Positions 3,092-20,504 of a stretch of DNA of 64,000 nucleotides are shown one piece after another (position 1 is the stretch's first letter; each line of letters starts with the position of its first letter). The notes below the pieces were generated by a model that worked only from the letters and a program-made list of their open reading frames with translations, was not told the origin of the DNA and made no database searches. The translations under genes were made by a program, and so were the position numbers. Origin of the DNA: Escherichia phage fjerdesal; sequence record MN850605.1. One strand, 5' to 3'.

Positions 3092-4198
3092 TTACTCAGA
3101 GTCTGAGCGAACGTCAACCAGCAGTTGAGGACGTGTGCAGTATGGCAGCATGTAAGAGTGAGCTTCGAAGTCAATACCTTCATCACGGTCTTTTTCGTAT
3201 TCAAATACGTACAACTCCTGACCCAGAGTATTTGCGTAGCCCATCTTCGGACATGGAGCGTAAGCTACTTCAAAGATGTTGTTTGCTTCACCAAGCATAG
3301 AAACGTTAGGGAAAGCGTGCCCTACACCTACAGTTCCATCCTGAGTAACACCATCGATGCTAACCAGAGTATGGGTCTTGCCGCGCTTGTCTTTGAACTT
3401 ACCGTTGTACTGGACAAACTTAACACCACCGTAGTAGAACGTGTTCATATGAGCCTGAACACCATCAGAACCACCAGTTCTCAGAGAGCCAGTAATCTGT
3501 TGCCATGCCAGCGGAGTCTGCTGTGCAAGGTATGCGTCACGAATCTTCGGATGCTTGGTAAGTTTACTGAAGAAAGTTCTGTCAACAACTACGTGAATCT
3601 CTTCACCGTTGATTACAGTACCAGTCTTAGCTTCGTCTTCCATGTGCATACGTAGGTCTTCGATGTGAGCATCAATATCAGAGTTCGGATTGTCAAGGTC
3701 GAAGTAGATAGTCTTCTTAGTTACATCGAACTGTTTGTACAGGTCTGCGTACAGAACACCATTAGCGTCGATAACTTTACCCTTCAGAGCTTGCATGAAC
3801 AAGAACTCACGAGTAATATCGAACTTGGTGCGAATCTTCATCAGCTTCTTAGCACGAACGATAGCTTCAGTGGTTAGTTCATTTGCAGTACCTGGCTGAC
3901 GTACACCCTGAATCTCATCAGGAGTAATGCTTTCAACTTCCTTGAAGTACATCATTGGGAAGCTGATTTGACGAACACGCTCAGGAGCACTTGTTTCAGC
4001 TTTACGGCTAGTGCGGTCTACAGCATCAAGCAAGCTGATATCCCAATCTGTCAAGTCCATCAGGAAGGTTGTCTGAGTTTGTGGTGCTGAACGGAACAGA
4101 CCTAAGTTGGAAATATACCCATAAGTGTTTGGGATAGACTGGACTTCACGAGTCAGGTCAGCAAGTAAAAATCTGCTTTTTTCAGAATTAGTCAACAT
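3092..4198 (-). CDS. major capsid protein (HK97-fold, lambda gpE-like position)
   Basis: 368-aa ORF following protease and decoration-like gene; size and order typical of a major capsid protein. Confidence 0.8.
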   Translation of the reverse strand: MLTNSEKSRFLLADLTREVQSIPNTYGYISNLGLFRSAPQTQTTFLMDLTDWDISLLDAVDRTSRKAETSAPERVRQISFPMMYFKEVESITPDEIQGVRQPGTANELTTEAIVRAKKLMKIRTKFDITREFLFMQALKGKVIDANGVLYADLYKQFDVTKKTIYFDLDNPNSDIDAHIEDLRMHMEDEAKTGTVINGEEIHVVVDRTFFSKLTKHPKIRDAYLAQQTPLAWQQITGSLRTGGSDGVQAHMNTFYYGGVKFVQYNGKFKDKRGKTHTLVSIDGVTQDGTVGVGHAFPNVSMLGEANNIFEVAYAPCPKMGYANTLGQELYVFEYEKDRDEGIDFEAHSYMLPYCTRPQLLVDVRSDSE

Positions 4199-4620: not shown

Positions 4621-5967
4621 TTATTTGATAAGAGATTTTAGAGCATTCTGGAGAGCCAGTTTGCGTTGTTCAGCGGTGTCTTCGGAAGCATTCTTAGCTG
4701 GTTCTTTTTCTTCTTCAACCAAATCAGCTTCGCCGTCATTACCCACTTCTTCCATAGCGTTGGAATGTTCAAGAACAGCACCAGCAGTTTCTTTCAGCTT
4801 GGTAATTTCTGATTCTTTTTCTTCCATTGCAGAAGCATGGGACGCGATAGTTTCATTAAGTTTCTGGTTAGCACCTTCCATAGCATTCATAAACAGAACG
4901 CTCAGAGGGTTATCAAGACCAGCACCTAAAATAGCCGTTGCAGCTTCTTTTGCATCAAACCCAAAAGCTTCAGCAGAAGCAGAAATCTTATTAGTCAAAT
5001 CTGACAAAGCAGCTTCCTGTTCTTTAGCTTTCATTTGAGCAACCTGAAGACGCAAAGCTTCTAGTTCTTGCTTTTCTTGTTCAGTCATTTCTTCACCTGA
5101 ATTGTTAACGTTTAAACTTACAGGAGCCTCTTCAGAACCTTGTAAGTAATTTAAGAAATCATCTTGAGACATGATTGAGTTAATTAAACCAAGTTCAAGA
5201 GCTTCCTGAGCAGAATAAACATTCGCCTCAGTATTCTTTACAGCTTCTTCAGAGAGATTACGAGATTCGGCTACAAAACCTGTAAAGGTTGCGTAGGTAT
5301 CATTAATTCTCTTTTGAAGTCTTTCTTTGCTTTCTTCTGAAAGTGCTTGGAATGGTGAACCCATACCTTTAAACTCACCAGCTTTGATGACGTTAATTGT
5401 CACGCCATTCTTTTCAAATGCTTTAGTTAATTCCTGATGAACCATAATTACACCAATAGAACCAACATCTGCATCTGGTGATGCAATAATTTCTTCAGCA
5501 GAAGATGCAAGAGCGTATGCAGCGGAACAAGCGAACTCATCTACATAAGCAATAATTTTCTTTTGGCCTCTTGAAGCCATAATGTGACGTGCTAATTCAA
5601 AGCAACCTGAAGCTTCACCACCACCAGAATCAATGTGCAGAACAATAGTCTTGATTGACTCATCTGCTAAAGCTTCGTCAAAGCCTCTACGCAAACCTTC
5701 ATAAGAGCTTAATCCACCTGTACACATTGCATCAATGAATGTCATACGATGGGTTAAACCACCCATAATAGGGATAATAGCAATGTCATCTTTTACTTTT
5801 AAAAGACTTCTTGCTTCACCTTTGGGTTTATCAAAGTTTACTGCTGCTTGGACATCACCCAGCAATCTGTTATTCACATAAGTTGCTGCTGAGTGAGCTA
5901 ATGATTCAGTGGCTAGTAAAGGTTGGTTGAATAATCTATCAGCAAGTCTGAAGATATTCGAACTCAT
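4621..5967 (-). CDS. prohead protease (S49/ClpP-like) with C-terminal scaffold-like coiled coil
   Basis: N-terminal region with S49 peptidase-like motifs (IPIMGG..., DSGGGE...), C-terminal charged coiled-coil; located between portal and capsid genes. Confidence 0.75.
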   Translation of the reverse strand: MSSNIFRLADRLFNQPLLATESLAHSAATYVNNRLLGDVQAAVNFDKPKGEARSLLKVKDDIAIIPIMGGLTHRMTFIDAMCTGGLSSYEGLRRGFDEALADESIKTIVLHIDSGGGEASGCFELARHIMASRGQKKIIAYVDEFACSAAYALASSAEEIIASPDADVGSIGVIMVHQELTKAFEKNGVTINVIKAGEFKGMGSPFQALSEESKERLQKRINDTYATFTGFVAESRNLSEEAVKNTEANVYSAQEALELGLINSIMSQDDFLNYLQGSEEAPVSLNVNNSGEEMTEQEKQELEALRLQVAQMKAKEQEAALSDLTNKISASAEAFGFDAKEAATAILGAGLDNPLSVLFMNAMEGANQKLNETIASHASAMEEKESEITKLKETAGAVLEHSNAMEEVGNDGEADLVEEEKEPAKNASEDTAEQRKLALQNALKSLIK

Positions 5968-10339: not shown

Positions 10340-10415
10340 TGGAGAATCCGAAGGGACTCGAACCCTTATAAACCTGTTTTGCAGACAGGCACATATCCAT
10401 TTCTGTCACGGATTC
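10340..10415 (-). tRNA. tRNA-Cys (anticodon GCA)
   Basis: Perfect 7-bp acceptor stem, T-arm AAGGG/TTCGAGT/CCCTT, anticodon loop CTGCAAA, U73, encoded CCA. Confidence 0.75.
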
Positions 10416-10419
10416 AAAT

Positions 10420-10512
10420 TGGAGGAAGATACCAGACTTGAACTGGTACACCGATTTCTCAGCTACTGGCAGTTTAGCAAACTGCTCCCTTACCTTTTAG
10501 GGTTAATCTTCC
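10420..10512 (-). tRNA. tRNA-Ser (anticodon GCT), type II
   Basis: Acceptor GGAAGAT/ATCTTCC, anticodon stem GCAGT/ACTGC loop TTGCTAA, long variable arm, T-arm ACCAG/TTCAAGT/CTGGT. Confidence 0.7.
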
Positions 10513-10513
10513 A

Positions 10514-11248
10514 TTATTTCTGTAATGCGCTCTTCATTTCTGGTGTTGCAATAGTGTCAATCACACCAGTTTTACAAGCATCGTCAAACCAGTCTGGTAA
10601 GATACCTGCTAAGAACCCATTGATATTCGTTTTAAGGTACTCTGCAATAAGGGCAGCTTCTTCTTCAATCATCTGCACAACTTCATCTGCATAAGCTGTA
10701 ATCTTTGAAATACCTTCATTAATCTTACTGACAGCTTGGTTAGCTAAATCAGAAACAGTATCAAGACCCTTATCAATAGCATCTTGTAAGTCACTTAACA
10801 CACCATTAACACTATCTAGTGTACTGTTCATCATGTCAATAGCTTTTTGACCATACTCTGTAGCAACACCCATGATACCACTGAATGGTTTACAACCAAC
10901 TTGTTCTCCTGCTGCACCCATAACATTGGAATACCCCTTTGCTACCTGCATACGTGATGAAAACTCATCAATAGATTTTTGACCGTAGTCTGTCAGAGTT
11001 TTAGTAGTTGCTGTAGTGCTTGTAAGGCTTGTTGTAAAGCTGTTTAGAAGGACTGTTGTAAGTCCAGCAGCAACAAGTTTCTCCTTCATTGTAGGGTCTG
11101 TTACAGAACTAATAGAGCTTACAAGTGATGTAGAAGCAGCTACGGTTCCACCGAGAACTGCTGCACCAGTAATAAGCGGGTTAGAGAACCCTTTACCAGT
11201 TTTTAAGAGATTAAAAATCTCCTTACCTTGTTCTGTCATCTCTTTCAT
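10514..11248 (-). CDS. hypothetical protein (Ser/Thr-rich)
   Basis: ORF 10514..11311 in track; start trimmed to ATG at 11248 because upstream part overlaps tRNA-Phe; AGGTG SD. Confidence 0.5.
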   Translation of the reverse strand: MKEMTEQGKEIFNLLKTGKGFSNPLITGAAVLGGTVAASTSLVSSISSVTDPTMKEKLVAAGLTTVLLNSFTTSLTSTTATTKTLTDYGQKSIDEFSSRMQVAKGYSNVMGAAGEQVGCKPFSGIMGVATEYGQKAIDMMNSTLDSVNGVLSDLQDAIDKGLDTVSDLANQAVSKINEGISKITAYADEVVQMIEEEAALIAEYLKTNINGFLAGILPDWFDDACKTGVIDTIATPEMKSALQK

Positions 11249-11266
11249 TAAGCACCTTTGAAATTG

Positions 11267-11343
11267 GTAGTCCAGTGGGATTTGAACCCTCTTCTCATGT
11301 TTTTCAGACACGCGCTTTAACCATATAAGCTACTTGGACTATA
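11267..11343 (-). tRNA. tRNA-Phe (anticodon GAA)
   Basis: T-loop TTCAAAT, anticodon stem CGTGT/ACATG loop CTGAAAA, D-stem GCTT/AAGC; 5' region slightly noncanonical. Confidence 0.6.
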
Positions 11344-11348
11344 AATTG

Positions 11349-11424
11349 GGGTGACCTACGGGATTTGAACCCGTATAGACCATGTTCACAGCATGGGTCA
11401 TTACCGTTTATGATAAGGCCACAT
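11349..11424 (-). tRNA. tRNA-His (anticodon GTG)
   Basis: Acceptor GTGGCCT/AGGTCAC, anticodon stem CCATG/CATGG loop CTGTGAA, C73, encoded CCA. Confidence 0.7.
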
Positions 11425-11455
11425 TTAAGGACTCTCGCAAGAATCCTTAGAAGTG

Positions 11456-11531
11456 GCAGCGGCATAAGGATTTGAACCTTAATAGGACAGCTTCAGAGGC
11501 TGCTGCATTGCCAGTTATGCTATACCGCTAA
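11456..11531 (-). tRNA. tRNA-Gln (anticodon CTG)
   Basis: D-stem GCAT/ATGC, anticodon stem GCAGC/GCTGT loop CTCTGAA, T-arm TAAGG/TTCAAAT/CCTTA, G73. Confidence 0.7.
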
Positions 11532-11536
11532 ATTTG

Positions 11537-11615
11537 GTACTCCATATCGGATTCGAACCGATACATAACACAGATTTTAAGTCTGGCCTCTCTGCCAATT
11601 GGAGTAATGGAGCAT
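11537..11615 (-). tRNA. tRNA with anticodon TAA (Leu-type anticodon, short variable arm)
   Basis: Acceptor GCTCCAT/ATGGAGT, T-arm ATCGG/TTCGAAT/CCGAT, anticodon loop CTTAAAA, A73; only 76 nt plus CCA. Confidence 0.6.
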
Positions 11616-11617
11616 TG

Positions 11618-11693
11618 GCGGGGGATGTTGGAATTGAACCAACTTCTTCGATTTCAAAGACCGAGGTTTTAACCTTGTAAACTAATCCCCTTT
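11618..11693 (-). tRNA. tRNA-Gln (anticodon TTG)
   Basis: T-arm GTTGG/TTCAATT/CCAAC, anticodon stem TCGGT/ATCGA loop CTTTGAA, G73, A1-C72 mismatch. Confidence 0.6.
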
Positions 11694-11699
11694 AAATCT

Positions 11700-12257
11700 T
11701 TACTTTCTCAGTGGATGAATAAAGAATGCCAACATAACTCTTTCCCTTGAGAATGCTCTTTCTTCTGGGACAACACTTTTTAGTTTCCATCCAATATAAA
11801 TTCTCCAGTAAAATTGTTTACCAAAGATTTTAATTGATGGGATAAAAGCGAATAATCCCCAAGCATTACTGTTCCACATTAGGAGATAACCTGTCTGATT
11901 ATCTTCGGGGTCAGAACTTACGTTGATATTACCTTTCCACTTAGTAACATCTCTTACATCTCTTCCTAATACATGGTAAGAGAAGTTATAAGCTTTGTTT
12001 CTCCAGAGCCATCCGACTCTTTGCATGTAGACACCTAGTTTACCAATCCATCTAATATTAGCCCATCTTTTAACGTGACCTTCATCACCATCAATTGGGT
12101 TGTCATATGTCTCCATCCATCTGAACCCGAAAGGTAAGTGTCCTTTCTTCTCACTGTAGAATGGAACTACAAAAGGTGCTAAGATAACTGCTAAGATTGC
12201 TGCAAATGGCTCTAACAAAGCTAAGAAAATCCATGAAGCATACTTCAAATATCTCAT
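11700..12257 (-). CDS. hypothetical membrane protein embedded in tRNA cluster
   Basis: 185-aa ORF with hydrophobic N-terminal segments. Confidence 0.55.
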   Translation of the reverse strand: MRYLKYASWIFLALLEPFAAILAVILAPFVVPFYSEKKGHLPFGFRWMETYDNPIDGDEGHVKRWANIRWIGKLGVYMQRVGWLWRNKAYNFSYHVLGRDVRDVTKWKGNINVSSDPEDNQTGYLLMWNSNAWGLFAFIPSIKIFGKQFYWRIYIGWKLKSVVPEERAFSRERVMLAFFIHPLRK

Positions 12258-12276
12258 CTAAATAGCCTCTTTAAAT

Positions 12277-12352
12277 TGGCGCAGGATAAGGGATTCGAAC
12301 CCCTATTAACAGCTTCGTAGACTGTTGCTCTATCCATTTGAACTAATCCTGC
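12277..12352 (-). tRNA. tRNA-Arg (anticodon ACG)
   Basis: Perfect acceptor GCAGGAT/ATCCTGC, anticodon stem ACAGT/GCTGT loop CTACGAA, encoded CCA. Confidence 0.75.
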
Positions 12353-12357
12353 AAAAT

Positions 12358-12435
12358 TGGTGTTCCAAGACGGATTCGAACCGTCACTAATACAAGGTTT
12401 GAGCTTGCATCCTCTGCCAATTGGGATACTGGAAC
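12358..12435 (-). tRNA. tRNA with anticodon CAA (Leu-type anticodon, short variable arm)
   Basis: Acceptor GTTCCAG/TTGGAAC, T-arm GACGG/TTCGAAT/CCGTC, anticodon stem GCAAG/CTTGT loop CTCAAAC, A73. Confidence 0.6.
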
Positions 12436-12436
12436 A

Positions 12437-12511
12437 TGGTACTCACTAAAGGACTTGAACCTTTTTCTTCATCTTGTAAGGGTGATGTTTTACCATATAA
12501 ACTAAGCGAGT
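12437..12511 (-). tRNA. tRNA-Val (anticodon TAC)
   Basis: D-stem GTTT/AAAC, T-arm AAAGG/TTCAAGT/CCTTT, anticodon loop CTTACAA, A73. Confidence 0.7.
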
Positions 12512-12518
12512 ATGAAAG

Positions 12519-12607
12519 AGGTCTGAAGTTGTGCCGCTAACTCAACTTCGTGGAATTTGTTACGGTCTTCAGTTGACTCAAAGCGGTCTTTCACTTGACC
12601 TCTGAAT
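12519..12607 (-). ncRNA. structured non-tRNA spacer element (GAGGTC...GACCTC closing stem, internal GAAGACCG motifs)
   Basis: 89-bp gap in tRNA array; terminal inverted repeat and internal hairpin, no canonical T-loop. Confidence 0.3.
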
Positions 12608-12683
12608 TGGTGCTCCCACAAGGACTCGAACCCTGATAAGTTGCTTACAAGGCAACCATAATAACCAATTATACGATAGGAGC
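12608..12683 (-). tRNA. tRNA-Thr (anticodon TGT)
   Basis: Anticodon stem GTTGC/GCAAC loop CTTGTAA, T-arm CAGGG/TTCGAGT/CCTTG, encoded CCA. Confidence 0.75.
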
Positions 12684-12690
12684 ATTAATT

Positions 12691-12765
12691 TGGAGCATCC
12701 AGAGGGAATCGAACCCTCAACCTCAGTTTGGAAGACTGTAATTTTCCCGTTTAAACTATGGATGC
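12691..12765 (-). tRNA. tRNA-Gly (anticodon TCC)
   Basis: Acceptor GCATCCA/TGGATGC, T-arm GAGGG/TTCGATT/CCCTC, loop CTTCCAA, U73. Confidence 0.75.
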
Positions 12766-12771
12766 ACTAAT

Positions 12772-12846
12772 TGGTGGAGTCACTGAGAATTGAACTCAGT
12801 TCCCAAGTTTGCAAAACTCGAATTTTAACCATATAAACTATGACCC
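12772..12846 (-). tRNA. tRNA-Ala (anticodon TGC)
   Basis: Acceptor with G3-U70 wobble (Ala identity), anticodon loop TTTGCAA, T-arm CTGAG/TTCAATT/CTCAG. Confidence 0.75.
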
Positions 12847-12854
12847 CCATTGTT

Positions 12855-12930
12855 TGGTACAGGTGGAGGGAATTGAACCCATCGTCTTACTGATTAAGAG
12901 TCAGCCGCATAACCATTTTGCTACACCTGC
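12855..12930 (-). tRNA. tRNA-Lys (anticodon CTT)
   Basis: Acceptor GCAGGTG/CACCTGT, anticodon stem GCTGA/TCAGT loop CTCTTAA, T-loop TTCAATT. Confidence 0.65.
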
Positions 12931-12937
12931 ATTAATT

Positions 12938-13014
12938 TGGTACACCTAGAGAGATTCGAACTCACACTGAGCAGATTCTAAGTCTGCTGCCTCTACCAGT
13001 TGGGCTATAGGTGC
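12938..13014 (-). tRNA. tRNA with anticodon TAG (Leu-type anticodon, short variable arm)
   Basis: Canonical D-arm GCC/AACTGGTAGA/GGC, perfect anticodon stem GCAGA/TCTGC loop CTTAGAA, T-loop TTCGAAT, A73. Confidence 0.65.
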
Positions 13015-13020
13015 ATTAAA

Positions 13021-13101
13021 TCTTTTTAGAGAACTTCTAAGAACCTGAGCAACAAGGTTCCACAACAAGCGACTAATAACCTTAGAAGCCCTCTAAAAAG
13101 A
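13021..13101. repeat. long inverted repeat (about 20-bp arms, about 40-nt loop) in tRNA cluster
   Basis: tctttttagagaacttctaag ... cttagaagccctctaaaaaga are reverse complements. Confidence 0.5.
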
Positions 13102-13268
13102 CCTAAATAGGTCTTTGCATAGTCTTGTTTAATCCGGTGACTAGAACCTTTGGAGAGCTTGATATTATCTCTTCTCCGTGACACCTACTAGGTGCTTTGA
13201 CAGTGTACGACAATACACGAGGGATAAACCGACAATGCGAACAAGCATGGACGGAGTAAATCTTATTA

Positions 13269-13358
13269 GGCGGTAAGTAAAGGAGTCGAACCCTCACCGT
13301 ATCTCTACAGTGGCAACAGTTTTCAAGACTGTTTGGCTGCCATTAGCCGCTACCTACC
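13269..13358 (-). tRNA. tRNA-Ser (anticodon TGA), type II
   Basis: Acceptor GGTAGGT/ACTTACC, anticodon stem ACAGT/ACTGT loop CTTGAAA, long variable arm, G73. Confidence 0.7.
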
Positions 13359-13371
13359 CCTAATAAGACTT

Positions 13372-13454
13372 TGGCATGGGACGGAGGAGTTGAACCCCTT
13401 TGAAACGGTTTTGGAGGCCGTTGCTCATGCCTTAGAGTCTTAACATCGTCCCAT
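13372..13454 (-). tRNA. tRNA-like gene, possibly tRNA-Trp (anticodon CCA) with atypical D-arm
   Basis: Perfect acceptor ATGGGAC/GTCCCAT, G73, encoded CCA, T-loop TTCAACT; anticodon stem AACGG/CCGTT enclosing 9-nt loop CCTCCAAAA. Confidence 0.45.
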
Positions 13455-13596
13455 ATTATAATTCGAAGCTTACCCTGTTATCTCAACACTGTCAAGCTTC
13501 TTCTCAGATTATTTACATGTTCTGGAAAACATGAGATACAGACCACCTCCCTACAGGAAGACCCGCTAAGGCCGTCTAAGTAATCTGCTAACTATT

Positions 13597-13673
13597 TGGT
13601 ACACCCTACAGGATTCGAACCTGTAACTAACGATTTAGAAGACCGTTGCTCTATCCAATTGAACTAAGGGTGC
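13597..13673 (-). tRNA. tRNA-Arg (anticodon TCT)
   Basis: D-arm GTTC/AATTGGATA/GAGC, anticodon stem ACGGT/ATCGT loop CTTCTAA, T-arm ACAGG/TTCGAAT/CCTGT. Confidence 0.75.
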
Positions 13674-13875
13674 ATTATCTTTAAAGACTCTCTTAGAAAG
13701 CCCTTAAAGATGCCCACCTTATTAATCATACCGTGGGCGAGTACGCCAAATTCTTTGATGAGGGATTGGAAGACCTCACTGGTGTTTAGCCTATCAAGCT
13801 ACTGCCAGAAAAACATTGTCGTTTGCATTTATTTTAAATTTGCAAAATAGACGCTACGCAACGAAAACTAAGGTT

Positions 13876-13904
13876 ACTATAAAGTAGTCACATCTCAATG
13901 TCAA
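13876..13904 (-). promoter_or_regulatory. sigma70-type promoter inside tRNA cluster (TTGACA-N17-TATAGT)
   Basis: Minus-strand TTGACATTGAGATGTGACTACTTTATAGT; reads toward tRNA-Arg(TCT) sub-cluster. Confidence 0.55.
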
Positions 13905-13919
13905 CAACTTTATTGAAAT

Positions 13920-13995
13920 TGGTACTGGTAGGTGGAATCGAACCACCGATGTTCCCTTATCAGGGGAGTGTTATAACCTTCTTAACTATACCAGC
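13920..13995 (-). tRNA. tRNA-Ile (anticodon GAT)
   Basis: D-arm GTTA/AGAAGGTTA/TAAC, T-arm GGTGG/TTCGATT/CCACC, loop CTGATAA. Confidence 0.7.
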
Positions 13996-13996
13996 T

Positions 13997-14073
13997 TGGA
14001 GGTTCAGATGGGAATCGAACCCACATTCATAGGGCTTATGAGACCCTTGCATTACCTTATCTGCGACTGAACC
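13997..14073 (-). tRNA. tRNA-Met (anticodon CAT)
   Basis: Acceptor GGTTCAG/CTGAACC, anticodon stem AGGGT/GCCCT loop CTCATAA. Confidence 0.7.
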
Positions 14074-14077
14074 ATAT

Positions 14078-14153
14078 TGGTAGAAGTGGAGGGATTCGAA
14101 CCCATCGCCTGTCAGATTAAAAGTCTGCCGCATCACCATTCTGCTACACTTCC
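14078..14153 (-). tRNA. tRNA-Lys (anticodon TTT)
   Basis: Acceptor GGAAGTG/CACTTCT, loop CTTTTAA, T-loop TTCGAAT. Confidence 0.65.
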
Positions 14154-14163
14154 ATTAAATTAT

Positions 14164-14297
14164 CTTTGTAGATAAGCTACCCAGACTTGCTTAAGGTCTG
14201 TAGCGATGTGCCTTTTTTGGGTTTAAATCTAGAATTTACCCATTCACCCTTTGTGGTCGCATACTCACAAGTAAGCTTAATAACTTATCTACAAAGG
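14164..14297. repeat. 13-bp perfect inverted repeat (ctttgtagataag / cttatctacaaag) separated by about 108 bp
   Basis: Exact reverse-complement arms at 14164-14176 and 14285-14297. Confidence 0.5.
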
Positions 14298-14299
14298 TA

Positions 14300-14440
14300 A
14301 TTACCAGACCGTTGTTTATCATCTTAAGTGCTACCATTACACCAACTCGACATCTGCCGAGTGAAGGAATCGAACCTTCGCCTTTTCTTTACCGGAGAAA
14401 TAGATTGTTTAAGTTTTGCTGTAAACGGCCTTCTGTAAAT
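14300..14440 (-). ncRNA. candidate Y-RNA-like element containing a circularly permuted tRNA-like module
   Basis: Minus strand order: T-arm GAAGG/TTCGATT/CCTTC (14363-14379), closed acceptor-like hairpin ACTCGGC-AGAT-GTCGAGT (14345-14362), D-arm-like GTG/TAATGGTAG/CAC (14328-14343); flanked by AGGCCGTT / AACGGTCT complementary segments; no anticodon arm. Confidence 0.35.
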
Positions 14441-14586
14441 TTGTTGAGCCAGACCAAGTTTTAAATTTTCAAAATTAAATTGGCTTGAAAATATCATACG
14501 TTCTTGCTGAATTTGGTCTTCTGCTCCTTTAAAGAATACTCGTAAGAACTCTTTAAGGGAGGGGCTAAATAGCCCTCTCAAAATTG

Positions 14587-14661
14587 GCGGCTACGATGAG
14601 ACTTGAACTCACATCATCTCCCGTGACAGGGGAGTATTTTCTCCAGTTAAACTACATAGCC
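14587..14661 (-). tRNA. tRNA-Asp (anticodon GTC)
   Basis: Acceptor GGCTATG/CGTAGCC, perfect anticodon stem CTCCC/GGGAG loop CTGTCAC, G73, encoded CCA. Confidence 0.75.
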
Positions 14662-14666
14662 TTTAT

Positions 14667-14754
14667 TGGTGTGCCGTGTAGGAGTCGAACCTACCGAGTC
14701 TCAATGACAAGGGATTTACAGTCCCCACCGCTACCATCTACGGGATAACGACAC
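14667..14754 (-). tRNA. tRNA-Tyr (anticodon GTA), type II
   Basis: T-arm GTAGG/TTCGACT/CCTAC, anticodon loop CTGTAAA, long variable arm. Confidence 0.7.
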
Positions 14755-14762
14755 ATTTAATT

Positions 14763-14839
14763 TGGCGGTTAGTCAGGGATTCGAACCCTGTGCCATTCGC
14801 TTAACAGGCGACCGCACATACCTTATGTGCTTCCTAACC
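14763..14839 (-). tRNA. tRNA-Asn (anticodon GTT)
   Basis: T-arm CAGGG/TTCGAAT/CCCTG, anticodon loop CTGTTAA, G73. Confidence 0.65.
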
Positions 14840-14917
14840 TTAATACATTGCCAGACCGTGTTTTTTCTTTTATCCGCAAAAAAGTATTTTGTTGCTGAAT
14901 ACGGTCTTCTGCAAAAT

Positions 14918-14994
14918 TGGAGGCGGGTGCAGGAGTCGAACCTGCCGATACCATGCTAATGAGACATGTGAGACGCCCTTTCTCTATACCCGCA
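14918..14994 (-). tRNA. tRNA with anticodon CAT (Met or lysidine-type Ile2)
   Basis: T-arm GCAGG/TTCGACT/CCTGC, anticodon stem CATGT/GCATG loop CTCATTA. Confidence 0.6.
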
Positions 14995-15085
14995 ATTCTT
15001 AATGACCAGACCAAATCTCTTCTTTGTCCGATTTACCTTCAGATGAATAAGATTAAGTTTGCTGTAATTGGTCTTCTGTCAAAAC

Positions 15086-15163
15086 TGGCGTTCCAGAAGG
15101 GATTTGAACCCTCAGATATCCACTTTGAAAGAGTGGTGACTATACCATTTTGTCTACTGGAAC
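15086..15163 (-). tRNA. tRNA-Glu (anticodon TTC)
   Basis: Acceptor GTTCCAG/CTGGAAC, perfect anticodon stem CCACT/AGTGG loop CTTTCAA, G73. Confidence 0.75.
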
Positions 15164-15170
15164 ATTAATT

Positions 15171-15247
15171 TGGTCTCTGTTGGAGGACTTGAACCTCCGG
15201 CCTTACCGCCCCAAACGGAACGCTCTACCAATCTGAGCTAAACAGAG
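15171..15247 (-). tRNA. tRNA-Pro (anticodon TGG)
   Basis: Perfect acceptor CTCTGTT/AACAGAG, D-arm GCTC/AGATTGGTA/GAGC, loop TTTGGGG, T-arm GGAGG/TTCAAGT/CCTCC. Confidence 0.75.
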
Positions 15248-15365
15248 ATAAACTTTTCAAACTCTATGTAACCACTTTAACATTATTTTTTAGTGGTTGT
15301 CAAGAACTTTTTTAAAATATTTTTCAGTATCTTAGAAAAGCTCTCATTTCGCTTCTATGTAGAAC

Positions 15366-15394
15366 ATATTAAAGGGTATTAAACACATTGTCAA
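15366..15394 (-). promoter_or_regulatory. sigma70-type promoter embedded in hairpin (TTGACA-N17-TAATAT), heading the tRNA cluster
   Basis: Minus strand AGGGTATTGACAATGTGTTTAATACCCTTTAATAT; hairpin arms AGGGTATT/AATACCCT flank the -35. Confidence 0.5.
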
Positions 15395-15412
15395 TACCCT
15401 TTTTAAAACTTT

Positions 15413-16828
15413 TTACCAGATATAACGGTCAATCATTACTGCTTTGAGCATTACACTGATTGGGTCAAACTTCTCACCACCAAGCAGAGCTTTTAAAGTG
15501 GCTGGAGAGAACCCTGATACCATTGCTACACCGTTATCCTTAACAGATACTTCGCAAGTACCATTACGGTTTGCTAAGTACCAGAATACCAGTTGTGGCA
15601 TCTCATATCCAGCTTTTTTGTACTTACTCTGAATTGCTTCAAAGTTTGTACGACCGTTAGCTCCATCAACCTGATTGAACTCCATATCGGAGAAGATGAT
15701 AAGCTTACTTGGCATATCTTTCTGAGTCAAGTTGTTTCTTTTACCTGTTTCAAGAATGCGGTCAAAAGCTGCTTGTAAGTTAGTTGAGCCATATTCAACG
15801 TGTCGCATCACCTGACGATGACGGTTTCGTAAATCACCACTCAGTTCGATGAAGTGAGGGTTTGTTGAATAAACCATTAACTCATTCTTAAAGCAACCTG
15901 TATTGCGTTCTGCTACATACAAGGCAAGTGATACACCAATATCCAGAGCAGTAATGGAGCCAAAATTCACCCAAGACATTGAACTTGATACATCAGACAT
16001 ACACAAGATGTTTTCACCTTCTGCCATCCAGTTTGGTAGTGCTTTCCACTGCTCATTAGCAACATCTGCATTACCATACTTGACAGATTTAATCACATCG
16101 TATGGGTAAACAGCACCAGCGTTAATCTTAGTCTCACCTTTTGATAAGGACTCGATGTAAGCTTTGTAACGCTCTCCATCTTTACGGTTAAACAGTTTTT
16201 GGTAACGTGCAGCAGCAAGTGAAGGAATCTTACTGTAGTCAATCTTACCAAACTCATTAGCAGAGATTTTTTGCTCAACTGTATCAGATAGTGCAGACAA
16301 CAGTGTGCGGTACTCTTTCTCACTCAAGTTGGCAAACTTGCAGAAACGTTTTACAAACTGCTTATGACGTGGTTTGACTCGTGGTAACCACTTAGCCGCC
16401 AAACCTGCTGTTGCAGGGTCTAGTAATGCTGCTTCTAAATGTTTGAAGGCATCTGTCTCGAAACGAGTACCTACGAAGATTTTGAAGTCATCAAAACGAC
16501 CAAGTTCTGCAATCTTATCCATAATGCGAAGAACCTGCGTAGACTCTAAAACTTTGTCTTCAATTGCTTGAAGCAAAACAGTTCTGAAGGCTTTACGCTC
16601 ACCCATACCTTCTCGTACATCTCGCATATGAAGCAAAATACGAACTGCAACATCAACATCCTCACGCAAAGCTTTGTAGAACAGGTCTGGTAAGATTTCT
16701 ACGTTGCTACGGCTTGAACCAGCAGCTTTGTAAAAGTCTACAAGAGCAGACATTGATGAAGTATGGTTTACAGCACCATTTTCAGTTCGACCTGCATGAA
16801 GGTGCGCATGTTTAAATAATTCGCTCAT
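15413..16828 (-). CDS. vWA-domain protein, possibly Ro60/TROVE-like (Rsr-like)
   Basis: 471 aa; MIDAS motif DVSSS (CMSDVSSSMSW) and downstream beta-strand LIIFSDMEF typical of vWA; N-terminal ~280 aa helical region with loose resemblance to Ro60 motifs (LVDFYKAAGSS, YPYDVIKSVKYG); no adjacent AAA+ partner. Confidence 0.6.
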   Translation of the reverse strand: MSELFKHAHLHAGRTENGAVNHTSSMSALVDFYKAAGSSRSNVEILPDLFYKALREDVDVAVRILLHMRDVREGMGERKAFRTVLLQAIEDKVLESTQVLRIMDKIAELGRFDDFKIFVGTRFETDAFKHLEAALLDPATAGLAAKWLPRVKPRHKQFVKRFCKFANLSEKEYRTLLSALSDTVEQKISANEFGKIDYSKIPSLAAARYQKLFNRKDGERYKAYIESLSKGETKINAGAVYPYDVIKSVKYGNADVANEQWKALPNWMAEGENILCMSDVSSSMSWVNFGSITALDIGVSLALYVAERNTGCFKNELMVYSTNPHFIELSGDLRNRHRQVMRHVEYGSTNLQAAFDRILETGKRNNLTQKDMPSKLIIFSDMEFNQVDGANGRTNFEAIQSKYKKAGYEMPQLVFWYLANRNGTCEVSVKDNGVAMVSGFSPATLKALLGGEKFDPISVMLKAVMIDRYIW

Positions 16829-16861
16829 ATTTTACTCTCTTCTCTCATTTGTTTGTTGATG

Positions 16862-16892
16862 TGACAGACTTTAGAGCAACTTTGTAGAGTCT
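16862..16892 (-). promoter_or_regulatory. putative promoter (TTGACA-N18-TAAAGT) within hairpin, upstream of vWA gene
   Basis: Minus strand TTGACAGACTCTACAAAGTTGCTCTAAAGTCTGTC; 8-bp arms GACAGACT/AGTCTGTC. Confidence 0.4.
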
Positions 16893-16909
16893 GTCAACAC
16901 CTTTTAAAA

Positions 16910-17281
16910 TTATTTTTTGAGGGTTGCAACAGCAGAGAACGTTGGTTTGTTATCTGTCTGTTGTTGACCACCATTATCAGGAGTCTTCTTAGTGTCTGCT
17001 GCAAGTGCTTTCATCTCACCTGCTGAGTGAGTAAAGATAGTTTTACCTACCTCAATCATGCTCTTGATGGTTACGTCGTCTGTGTTTAACCCGAACTCTG
17101 CAAGCTTAGCAGCGTCCCTTGTAACAATCGCCTCAAACAACTTTGCAGCAAACTCAGCAGAATTATCAATGGTCAGTTGAGCTTTTACAAGTGAGCTTTT
17201 GTTACGAGAGCCTTTTGGTCTTCCAGATGGGTTTCCAGATTGGCCTTTTTTAAACTGGCCTTTGTTTGTTCTGTTTTTCAT
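16910..17281 (-). CDS. hypothetical protein with basic Gly/Ser-rich N-terminus
   Basis: 123-aa ORF, first gene of the minus-strand block after the divergent promoter region. Confidence 0.55.
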   Translation of the reverse strand: MKNRTNKGQFKKGQSGNPSGRPKGSRNKSSLVKAQLTIDNSAEFAAKLFEAIVTRDAAKLAEFGLNTDDVTIKSMIEVGKTIFTHSAGEMKALAADTKKTPDNGGQQQTDNKPTFSAVATLKK

Positions 17282-17402
17282 TGGTATGCCTCTTATAAGA
17301 CCTCTTAAAAGGCTTTTAAGATAAAAGATAGATATCCAGAAAGATATCTGTTTAAATAGCCTTTTTAGAGGAACCTTTTAAGTTATCTTCTAAGTATTTA
17401 TA

Positions 17403-18538: not shown

Positions 18539-18910
18539 ATGAAAGCTAAGAGTGCAAAAGACTTTTATTGCTTCCTACAATCCTATGTCAATTCCGTGCA
18601 AAATGGTGAAAGGTACAGCCTTAATGATGTTATCCCAACACCTTTGACATGGAGACTCAGCAAATGGCCTGAAGAAGATATTACACCAACAATCGAACAT
18701 CGTACCTACAAACCCGAAATCAATATTCCAGACTCTGAGAATCTATTATATCCAATGTTCCATATTGTTGGTCTTGGAAGATTCCTTATGGATATCCAGT
18801 ATGTAATTGGTAAAGGTTATAAGGTTAAAGGTATTGTTGTTGGTGACGTATCTCCGCATCACAAAGGTTATTTTAGACTAAACGCACATTTAGAGGCTAA
18901 AAAGAAATGA
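18539..18910 (+). CDS. hypothetical protein, paralog of N-terminal domain of next gene
   Basis: 123 aa; shares motifs (KxGxRYxxxxxxxxxLP...YKP...FFMDLQY) with 18907..20040. Confidence 0.55.
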   Translation: MKAKSAKDFYCFLQSYVNSVQNGERYSLNDVIPTPLTWRLSKWPEEDITPTIEHRTYKPEINIPDSENLLYPMFHIVGLGRFLMDIQYVIGKGYKVKGIVVGDVSPHHKGYFRLNAHLEAKKK

Positions 18911-20040
18911 TTAAAGCAAAGACTTACCCAGACTTCAAAGAGTTTGTGAAGGGCTTCATTGCAAACGTAAAGGCTGGTAAGAGATATGATTTTAGAACAT
19001 ATCAAGAGGCTATTTTACCGCTTACCTACAGTTCGTATTGGCCTGAAGCTGATATTGCAGAAGTCGATGAGTTTGACTACAAACCAGACTACAAAGTTCC
19101 ATTTAGTGATGAGTTGCTTTACAGCATTGGTGCTCAAATGAGAACTTCTGACTTCTTCATGGACTTACAATATGCAATTATCAATGGTAAAGACGTTGAC
19201 ACAATTTATTGTGAATGGCTGGCAAGAGTTAAACCATTCTCAATGTTGAATGCTAAGTTGAAGGATGCTATCAAGCCACCAGCAATCACTCAGCAACCAA
19301 CCAATCAAACAGTAAATGAAGGTGGTACGCTTACCCTAAGTGTTATTGCAACGAATGCCACTGGATATCAATGGAAAAAGGATGGAGAGGATATTCCTAG
19401 TGCCACCTCTGCAACTTATACAAAACAGTCCGTAGTACCTTCTGATGCTGGCTCATACACTTGTGTTGTATCTGGAGAGGCTGGAACAAGTGTTACCTCA
19501 GATGCGGCAACAGTTGCTGTTAATGCACTGCCTGTGATTACACAGCAGCCTTCTGGTCAGACTGTCAATGAGGGTGGAAGCATTAACTTGGAAGTGACTG
19601 CAACAGGTGCGACAGGTTACCAGTGGAAGAAAGATGGCTCTGACATTCCTTCAGCTACAAATGCTACCTATAGCAAGTCTGGTGCTCTGCCAGCAGATGC
19701 AGGCTCATATACTTGCGTTGTAACAGGTGCGGGTGGTGCAGTGACATCTAATGCTGCTGTAGTAACTGTGAACGCACTTCCAGTAATTACTCAACAGCCA
19801 ACCAATCAAGAAATCAATGAAGGTGAGACCTTAACGCTGAATGTTGTGGCAACAGGTGCGACAGGTTACCAGTGGAAGAAAGGTGAGGAAGACATCCTCG
19901 ATGCAACTACTGCAACTTACACCAAAGAAGGTGCGACCGCTGCTGATGCAGGAAGCTACACCTGTGTAGTTACTGGTGCAGGTGGCTCTGTAACATCTAA
20001 TGCAGCAACAGTTACAGTTAACCCAGCAGGGGAGGCGTAA
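18907..20040 (+). CDS. protein with N-terminal paralogous domain and three tandem Ig-like domains
   Basis: 377 aa; three ~80-aa repeats (ITQQPTNQTVNEGG...ATGYQWKKDG...DAGSYTCVV) resembling Ig-like/I-set domains. Confidence 0.6.
   Translation: MIKAKTYPDFKEFVKGFIANVKAGKRYDFRTYQEAILPLTYSSYWPEADIAEVDEFDYKPDYKVPFSDELLYSIGAQMRTSDFFMDLQYAIINGKDVDTIYCEWLARVKPFSMLNAKLKDAIKPPAITQQPTNQTVNEGGTLTLSVIATNATGYQWKKDGEDIPSATSATYTKQSVVPSDAGSYTCVVSGEAGTSVTSDAATVAVNALPVITQQPSGQTVNEGGSINLEVTATGATGYQWKKDGSDIPSATNATYSKSGALPADAGSYTCVVTGAGGAVTSNAAVVTVNALPVITQQPTNQEINEGETLTLNVVATGATGYQWKKGEEDILDATTATYTKEGATAADAGSYTCVVTGAGGSVTSNAATVTVNPAGEA
19276..20030 (+). repeat. three tandem ~250-bp direct repeats encoding the Ig-like domains
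   Basis: Nucleotide-level repetition visible (cagtggaagaaag..., tcatacacttg...). Confidence 0.6.
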
Positions 20041-20504
20041 TGCAACTCTCAAGAAAAGGTTTAGATGCTATTAAGTTCTTCGAAGGTCTGGAGTTAGAGG
20101 CTTACGAAGATTCTGCCGGAATCCCAACAATCGGGTATGGGACAATCCGTATTGACGGAAAACCTGTTAAGATGGGTATGAAGATTACCGCTGAACAAGC
20201 TGAACAGTATCTTCTCGCAGATGTTGAAAAGTTTGTTGCAGCAGTGAACAAAGCCGTCAATGTTCCAACTTCTCAGAATGAGTTTGACGCACTTGTAAGT
20301 GAAACATACAACATTGGTATCACAGCTATGCAGGATTCCACATTTATCAAGCGCCACAATGCTGGTAATAAGGTGGGTTGTGCAGAAGCTATGCAGTGGT
20401 GGAACAAGGTTACAGTCAAAGGTAAGAAGGTCACTTCAAACGGACTGAAAAACAGACGTAGAATGGAAGCTGACATTTATCTTGACAGTGTATACCCAAA
20501 GTAA
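20040..20504 (+). CDS. endolysin, GH24-type lysozyme
   Basis: 154 aa; N-terminal EGxxLxAYxDxxGxxTIGYG motif typical of phage lysozymes. Confidence 0.8.
   Translation: MQLSRKGLDAIKFFEGLELEAYEDSAGIPTIGYGTIRIDGKPVKMGMKITAEQAEQYLLADVEKFVAAVNKAVNVPTSQNEFDALVSETYNIGITAMQDSTFIKRHNAGNKVGCAEAMQWWNKVTVKGKKVTSNGLKNRRRMEADIYLDSVYPK

Follow-up and report, generated by a model that had tools for sequence, protein, structure and literature searches.

The locus and its conservation

The DNA analysed here, referred to as the window, is a 64,000-nt stretch from Escherichia phage fjerdesal (sequence record MN850605.1). Its minus strand carries, at positions 15413-16828, an open reading frame (ORF) that begins with ATG and encodes a 471-aa protein, and downstream of this gene lies a tRNA array in which small RNA elements, E1-E5, are embedded. 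We describe evidence that the protein resembles Ro60 in its predicted fold and that E1-E4 are probably its RNA partners. The features needed to follow the protein side of the argument are these:

15413..16828, minus strand: gene for a DUF2828/DUF7788 protein (TRIB_026), a predicted Ro60-like ring protein (ORF, Pfam, PHROG, AlphaFold2 and Foldseek)
16034..16828, minus strand: N-terminal alpha-helical repeat region, residues ~1-265, TROVE-like by fold alone
15464..16009, minus strand: C-terminal vWA domain, residues 274-455, with a complete MIDAS motif (extent of DUF7788; invariant residues)
15980..15994, minus strand: codons of the MIDAS DxSxS motif, D279-S283 (direct reading; invariant alignment columns)
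10340..15247, minus strand: array of 26 co-oriented tRNA genes with E1-E5 embedded (ARAGORN, Rfam tRNA matches, GenBank annotation of phage Tribble)

An earlier note on this DNA had proposed a vWA protein of possible Ro60/TROVE architecture, encoded directly upstream of a tRNA cluster. Every motif that it quoted is present in the 471-aa ORF, namely LVDFYKAAGSS (residues 29-39), YPYDVIKSVKYG (241-252), DVSSSM (279-284) and LIIFSDMEF (376-384). The placement of the gene was also correct, as the first of the 26 co-oriented tRNA genes, tRNA-Pro (15171-15247 by ARAGORN), begins 165 nt past the stop codon.

Bases 15200-17300 share 100% identity with Escherichia phage vB_Eco_Tribble (Ounavirinae, Felixounavirus), and another 250 phage records match them at 60-99% identity (251 records in all from the DNA search). 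The protein itself is 100% identical to TRIB_026 of vB_Eco_Tribble, annotated "Phage conserved protein". A protein-level search finds homologues in 709 phage records, and the family profile matches 8,943 clusters at 50% identity. Given this identity, the conservation of both DNA and protein across phages and the number of clusters, sequence comparison indicates that the gene is no chance ORF. Members of the DUF2828/DUF7788 family are found in giant viruses too, the hosts of which are protists, and the DUF2828 family is present in plants as well.

Domains and predicted fold of the protein

Pfam assigns DUF7788 (1.7e-43, residues 274-455) and DUF2828 (3.9e-29) to the 471-aa protein, and in PHROGs it matches phrog_850, 'RNA-binding protein', at 5e-184; NCBIfam returned nothing relevant. 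The DUF7788 match coincides with the C-terminal vWA/MIDAS domain that had been proposed from the sequence, and in an alignment of 24 family members, down to 30% identity, the MIDAS residues D279, S281, S283, T349 and D381 are invariant. Several basic motifs in the N-terminal region are also kept among family members in this alignment.

To compare folds, we used an AlphaFold2 model built from a 27-sequence alignment (pLDDT 86.8, pTM 0.87). In the predicted model, HEAT-like helical repeats and a vWA domain together form a closed ring. When it was searched against the Protein Data Bank (PDB) with Foldseek, the ten best matches were all Ro60, aligned over the full length with E values of 1e-8 to 3e-7 and TM scores of 0.50-0.67. 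The matches that followed were isolated vWA domains, with E values of at least 1e-3. A partner protein of the CobT, ViaA or MoxR (NorD) type had also to be considered. We rejected this assignment: structural matches to such proteins are confined to the vWA domain, with no matching N-terminal domain, and a Pfam scan of the neighbouring ORFs found no AAA+/MoxR/CobS gene adjoining 15413-16828. The earlier note had likewise seen no AAA+ partner there; the gene immediately upstream encodes a DUF5681 protein, and further nearby ORFs encode DUF7338 or Ig-domain proteins or have no Pfam match.

Sequence-level links to Ro60 are fainter. A broader profile, A6, gave marginal matches in the PDB to the vWA domains of Xenopus, phage phiLo and human Ro60, aligned at the start of the MIDAS motif (E 0.07-0.2), and the Pfam family vWA_Ro60 is weakly matched by 6 of 27 family members, the window protein not being among them. 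The predicted fold therefore supports the proposed Ro60/TROVE architecture, with Ro60 as the top full-length match, whereas membership in the Pfam TROVE family does not; as a whole, the evidence supports the interpretation in the earlier note.

An RNA-binding role for the family has been suggested before. Mycobacteriophage homologues (31-34% identity, E 1e-58 to 1e-76) carry the annotation 'Ro-like RNA binding protein', RefSeq and PHROGs both label the protein "RNA-binding protein", and a survey of jumbo phages mentions ROT/TROVE proteins in some phages (PMC7824862). The protein half of the finding is thus largely anticipated by existing annotation.

Small RNA elements in the tRNA array

Reading the minus-strand spacers of the tRNA array, we recognised four paralogous elements, E1-E4, that lie between tRNA genes 330-1100 nt downstream of the 471-aa gene and on the same strand. 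A fifth structured element, E5, follows E4 directly. Scores given for R1 refer to a covariance model trained on 24 short elements.

14999..15081, minus strand: E1, short Y-like/Class I-like RNA between tRNA-Glu and tRNA-Met (sequence; R1 44.4 bits at 15005-15076)
14844..14913, minus strand: E2, short Y-like/Class I-like RNA between tRNA-Met and tRNA-Asn (R1 43.3 bits at 14850-14909)
14443..14526, minus strand: E3, short Y-like/Class I-like RNA after tRNA-Asp (R1 41.6 bits at 14448-14521)
14296..14441, minus strand: E4, long YrlA-like RNA with a permuted tRNA-like domain (minimum free energy (MFE) fold; RNAalifold; R1 26.1 bits with filters off)
14154..14302, minus strand: E5, highly structured RNA directly 3' of E4 (MFE -43.9 kcal/mol, z = -4.96)

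E1-E4 are built on one plan. In E1, stem I (GAC/GUC) is followed by an internal loop (AGA/G), stem II (AGACCAA/UUGGUCU) and then a UUACAGCAA box. Stem I is UUGC/GCAA in E2, GAGC/GCUC in E3 and UUAC/GUAA in E4, so that its sequence varies while complementarity is kept. The small internal loop, AGA opposite G, and a stem II of the form AGACC.../...GGUCU are common to all four, and the inner pairs of stem II covary (AA/UU versus G/C). The terminal stem opens with a G:C pair, and the box, which is single-stranded, comes directly after the 5' strand; it reads AUUCAGCAA in E2 and E3 and UUACAGCAA in E4, which shares the terminal stems of E1-E3.

Between these terminal parts, E4 holds an anticodon-like hairpin, a T arm (GAAGG-UUCGAUU-CCUUC), a closed acceptor-like hairpin and a D arm, as seen both in the MFE fold and in the RNAalifold consensus. 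The interior of E4 is a circularly permuted tRNA-like domain, as in the YrlA class of Y RNAs, and the Rfam tRNA model matches it in part (22.6 bits). This is the tRNA-mimic element that had been noticed within the array. Across six Ounavirinae orthologues aligned with RNAalifold, the acceptor-like hairpin occurs in three differing, fully complementary versions, giving three compensatory pairs. Chen et al. (PMC4201824) have cautioned that the T arm of one tRNA together with the D arm of the next can simulate such a domain. We reject this tandem-tRNA artefact for E4, because the closed hairpin between the two arms shows compensatory pairs in the orthologues, and tRNA parts are missing from its flanks.

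E5 is multibranched and closed by a 17-bp stem, and none of 200 shuffled sequences was equally stable. One of its internal hairpins, CAGAC-CUUAAGCAA-GUCUG, looks like a collapsed copy of the stem and box, although it is uncertain whether E5 belongs to the system.

GenBank records of related phages annotate only tRNAs in this region, with an occasional "tRNA-Thr", pseudo-tRNA or hypothetical ORF, and our literature searches returned no description of stem-and-box RNAs in phages. The RNA half of the finding appears to be new.

The stem-and-box element accompanies the gene in diverse phages

If E1-E4 belong with the protein, similar elements might be expected near its homologues. A simple descriptor, the box directly preceded by a stem, has matches in phages of Shigella, Vibrio, Aeromonas, Campylobacter, Listeria, Bacillus and Staphylococcus; these lie on the strand that carries the gene, no more than a few hundred nt away from it. 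Of the 74 box occurrences on the gene strand, 26 adjoin a Watson-Crick stem of 7 bp or longer, compared to 1 of 53 on the opposite strand and 1.2% at random anchors. This test does not presuppose the stem and hence is not circular.

Model R1, run on the window and 16 other loci, gave 38 matches, all of them on the gene strand. As an independent test set we took 59 IMG/VR loci that encode homologues of 40-48% identity, none of which had been used in training. Here R1 gave 56 matches at E <= 0.5, of which 55 were co-oriented with the gene. These matches fall in 40 of the 59 loci, within 600 nt of the gene in 38 and within 150 nt in 22. Stem columns were 97.5-98.5% paired, versus ~60% in shuffles and 34-60% in slid controls, and all seven pairs change on both sides, although covariation in alignments derived from the model is partly circular, the elements having been chosen or scored for pairing.

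A tRNA gene lies within 4 kb in 22 of the 42 test loci scanned, always co-oriented. Since many loci with no tRNA within that distance still carry the element, it is independent of tRNA arrays. Conversely, R1 had no match in 49 kb of phage T5 that spans its tRNA region, with 25 tRNAs and eight annotated stable RNAs. The genomic coupling of the protein to the RNA family is tight and strand-specific and extends across phages of Proteobacteria, Campylobacterota, Firmicutes, Actinobacteria and Fusobacteria.

In two phages the Rfam YrlA model matches directly downstream of the gene and on the same strand (mycobacteriophage LeBron, 39.8 bits; Klebsiella phage FBKp34, 39.6 bits; E ~1e-5; gathering score 69), and in both the match is flanked by short stem-and-box elements. 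In LeBron (locus L002, 6426-6725), the region downstream of gp53 comprises a stem-and-box element, the YrlA-like RNA, a second stem-and-box element and then a terminator hairpin; the YrlA-like RNA has an outer stem UGGACUC/GAGUCCA followed by UAGCAGCAA. This layout looks like an operon of a protein and three RNAs.

Over-long tRNA genes with an insertion were seen in FBKp34 (L003, 7003-7116) and in Cronobacter phage S13 (L005, 6896-7016 and 7026-7138). The insertion sits between the D arm and the T arm (in FBKp34, between the D arm and the anticodon arm) and consists of a closed hairpin followed by a UUACAGCA / AUUCAGCA box. Topologically, these over-long genes are circular permutations of the E4-type RNA.

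Genes for RtcB, RNA ligase or a CCA-adding enzyme lie near the homologous gene in Listeria, Aeromonas and Serratia phages, a setting that recalls the bacterial link between Ro60 and RNA-repair genes. In Listeria phage List-36 (L009), genes for an RtcB-type 'tRNA splicing ligase' and an RNA ligase are found downstream of the DUF2828 gene. The same phage has a match to ROOL RNA at 3426-3977, ~1 kb upstream of that gene (91.5 bits; gathering score 99.1).

In KVP40-like phages, a compact copy of the stem and box serves as the gene's own 5' untranslated region (UTR); the Shine-Dalgarno sequence falls in the loop and the AUG in the 3' stem. In related Straboviridae-like loci, the element adjoins the Shine-Dalgarno sequence and ends 10-15 nt before the AUG. 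The copies of the element in the 5' UTR of the DUF2828 gene, listed by locus, are:

4966-5005: L004
3962-4009: L040 and L041
~3944-3989: L044, L063 and L084

This arrangement suggests translational autoregulation, being the one expected if the protein recognises the element. It also favours a different account of the whole family, in which the stem with its UUACAGCAA box acts mainly in cis, as a translational operator or a 5' stabiliser of mRNA, and the protein either binds it for autoregulation alone or does not bind it, no trans-acting particle being formed. We regard this account as improbable. The window, Sf14, FBKp34, LeBron, Staphylococcus phages and many IMG/VR loci have multiple elements, which lie past the stop codon or between tRNAs, away from start codons, and some carry tRNA-like domains. 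Their multiplicity, position and tRNA-like domains fit stable RNAs better than operators, and the two roles can coexist.

Comparison with known RNA-protein systems

Several known systems share features with the one described here. The closest is that of Ro60/Rsr and its Y RNAs (YrlA, YrlB and Yrn1, including the Ro proteins of phage phiLo and of mycobacteriophages). Ro60/Rsr proteins bind Y RNA at their outer surface, take up the ends of misfolded RNAs in the central cavity and associate with polynucleotide phosphorylase. In bacteria, YrlA RNAs are encoded within 4 kb of Ro60 and on the same strand (PMC4201824). Small RNAs likewise lie near the gene and on its strand in the window and in 38 of the 59 independent loci. 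In E4, the parts enclosed by the terminal stem follow the same order as in YrlA: T arm, closed acceptor-like hairpin, D arm. Differences are also evident. The window protein is shorter than Ro60/Rsr (471 versus about 500-540 aa), has no Pfam TROVE match and is only 12-15% identical to Ro60. E4 retains an anticodon-like hairpin that sets it apart from YrlA, and Rfam YrlA (RF02553) scores stay below the gathering score of 69 bits in every locus tested, with no match at all in the window. Moreover, the UUACAGCAA box that follows the 5' stem here differs from the Ro-binding motif that Y RNAs carry in a terminal stem, defined as GGUCCGA / GNCGAA(N)G (PMC4201824). The system resembles Ro60/Y RNA, yet two marks of membership, a Pfam TROVE match and the canonical Ro-binding RNA motif, are absent from it. 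We classify it as a Ro60-like ribonucleoprotein (RNP) with a differing RNA recognition element, to which the protein would bind.

A second resemblance, on the RNA side, is to Dictyostelium Class I RNA (RF01414). Dicty_Class_I_RNA is the sole non-tRNA Rfam family that repeatedly matches the short elements, albeit below its gathering score of 41.5 bits: E2 scores 26.7 bits (E 0.004, local scan), E1 19.7 bits and elements from Aeromonas phages 28-30 bits. In both groups the 5' and 3' ends pair in a ~6-bp stem with a conserved initial G (the first pair is G:C in 47 of 49 element sequences), a CCUUACAGCAA / UUACAGCAA box comes directly after the 5' stem, the interior is variable and A/U-rich, the length is ~55-75 nt and the 3' end reads C-UG(U). 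The UUACAGCAA box is part of the 11-nt CCUUACAGCAA motif of Class I RNAs. In detail, Class I RNAs measure ~42-65 nt and end in CUGU, whereas the window copies measure 55-74 nt, end in CUGG, differ at the first two motif positions and have an extra outer stem and internal loop. Furthermore, the phage elements lack the DUSE promoter, and their hosts are phages rather than amoebae. Class I RNAs, the family features of which we take from PMC7919456, are reported there as unique to Dictyostelia, with the RNA recognition motif (RRM) protein Rnp1A as the only named binder. We treat the resemblance to Class I RNA as no more than a lead, and it could be convergent.

Two further comparisons are looser. 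TEP1, with vault RNA or telomerase RNA, also combines a TROVE-like and vWA module with small non-coding RNAs. However, TEP1 is very large and multidomain (TIR-like, NACHT, WD40), and neither these domains nor vault components are present here. The stable RNAs of phage T5 (RNAI, RNAIII, RNA1, RNA2 and others) are also small, in some cases tRNA-like, and interleaved with phage tRNA genes. In the T5 record (L098, 28-42 kb), eight carry the annotation 'stable RNAs with unknown functions', and none matches the stem-and-box model.

A Ro60-like protein and its candidate RNA partners

Three observations, namely that the predicted fold is similar to Ro60, that the RNA elements exist and covary, and that they co-localise with the protein family across phage lineages, lead us to infer a Ro60-like protein whose partners are the E1-E4 RNAs, a reading to which we assign a probability of roughly 0.7. 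Our confidence in any particular downstream function of such a particle is much lower than in the partnership itself.

The particle might work as follows. A helical-repeat, TROVE-like domain would be closed into a ring by the vWA domain, with a metal bound through the MIDAS motif. E1-E4 would be released from the tRNA precursor as the flanking tRNAs are processed, and the protein would recognise the terminal stem and the box, which occupies the place of the 5'-strand Ro-binding motif in Y RNAs. The complex may then act on structured RNAs during infection, either in surveillance or repair of tRNA or by modulating a host exoribonuclease. This last step is proposed by analogy with two systems: bacterial Rsr, which provides a precedent with Y RNA and polynucleotide phosphorylase (PNPase) (PMC4201824), and Thermus phage phiLo, whose Ro60 binds adjacent Y-like RNAs and host PNPase, attenuating the latter (PMC12135203). 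The tRNA-like module of E4 would be a likely tether for a tRNA-binding enzyme, and in KVP40-like phages the element may double as an operator that controls translation of the protein's own mRNA.

A number of results weigh against this reading, on both the protein and the RNA side. Pfam TROVE (PF05731) had no match in the window protein or in 27 homologues at E<=10. Sequence searches of the PDB, whether by phmmer with the single protein or by hmmsearch with profile A1, did not recover Ro60; similarity to Ro60 at the level of sequence is marginal, and the structural case for a Ro60-like ring depends on a predicted model. As for the RNAs, Rfam Y_RNA and YrlA gave no match in the window at E<=1 or E<=10, including a scan of 166 nt around E4. 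The canonical Ro60-binding motif is absent from E1-E4, which read C-AGAAG-ACC and then UUACAGCAA, with no CGAA box, and the fold of E4 by itself is no better than that of shuffled sequences (z = -1.1). Among the IMG/VR test loci, 19 of 59 gave no R1 match, and the circularity of the stem covariation noted above also counts here. Finally, co-localisation by itself would fit a cis-regulatory element or a different partner as well.

E4 and its relatives mimic tRNA, and the family occurs with tRNA arrays and RNA-repair genes. These observations, along with the attenuation of host PNPase by the phiLo Ro60/Yrl system (PMC12135203), are also consistent with the RNAs serving as decoys or sponges for host tRNA-targeting defence nucleases or tRNA-modifying enzymes, with the Ro60-like protein merely protecting or chaperoning them and playing no part in surveillance. 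We think that there is only a slim chance of this, as a tRNA-like part is missing from E1-E3 and from the majority of elements elsewhere, and the present analysis identified no defence target. It is very unlikely that the protein is a generic vWA/MIDAS protein-protein adaptor (for example, an assembly cochaperone or an anti-defence factor) and the elements unrelated spacers or processing signals of the tRNA operon, given that no AAA+ partner was found nearby, that the full-length fold match is Ro60 and not CobT, ViaA or MoxR partners, that the elements accompany the gene even in loci that have no tRNA closer than 4 kb, and that the tRNA region of T5 has none of them.

Other features of the locus

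Consensus scans point to several promoter-like sites around the gene:

16868..16897, minus strand: promoter-like site upstream of the gene, TTGACA-18-TAAAGT (consensus scan only)
15274..15394, minus strand: two promoter-like sites between the gene and tRNA-Pro, at 15394-15366 and 15303-15274 (consensus scan)

The latter two could drive the tRNA/small-RNA array. The array itself is interrupted twice on the minus strand, by a coding stretch for a DUF7338 protein (11700-12257; 1.3e-61) and by an ORF in a 752-nt gap (10513-11264) whose phage Sf14 homologue carries the annotation of a putative membrane protein. A weak tRNA-Sec-like Rfam match (23 bits) at ~13378-13452 on the minus strand, in a 238-nt gap of the array, covers sequence that reads like a degenerate tRNA with a CCA end; ARAGORN makes no call there. 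On the plus strand, positions 18907-20040 encode a protein of 377 aa, annotated 'putative tail protein', in which three Ig-like domains occur in tandem (Ig_3, 1.7e-33); its gene adjoins a lysozyme gene (20040-20504).

Implications

Ro60 is a major human autoantigen whose cellular role is partly understood, and its bacterial and phage versions offer tractable models. Our data indicate that a very large "domain of unknown function" family (~9,000 clusters at 50% identity, with members in 709 phages and in giant viruses) is a Ro60-like RNP family, one that appears to have its own RNA code. Hundreds of well-studied phages (Felix O1-like, KVP40-like, Listeria, Staphylococcus and Campylobacter phages) carry the RNAs concerned with no annotation. 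The window provides testable handles, with one defined protein, four defined RNAs and a 9-nt box.

We know of no core function for the Class I RNAs of Dictyostelia. A broader proposal, tentative enough that we would bet against it at present, is that DUF2828/DUF7788 proteins form a third TROVE-like RNP branch, beside Ro60/Y RNA and TEP1/vault RNA, with the 'stem + UUACAGCAA' RNA as ligand; Class I RNAs might then belong to the same ancient class, their missing partner being a eukaryotic DUF2828 homologue. The elements thus offer a lead toward the protein partner and the origin of Dictyostelium Class I RNAs, and they suggest a possible reason why phage tRNA arrays hold stable RNAs of unknown function.

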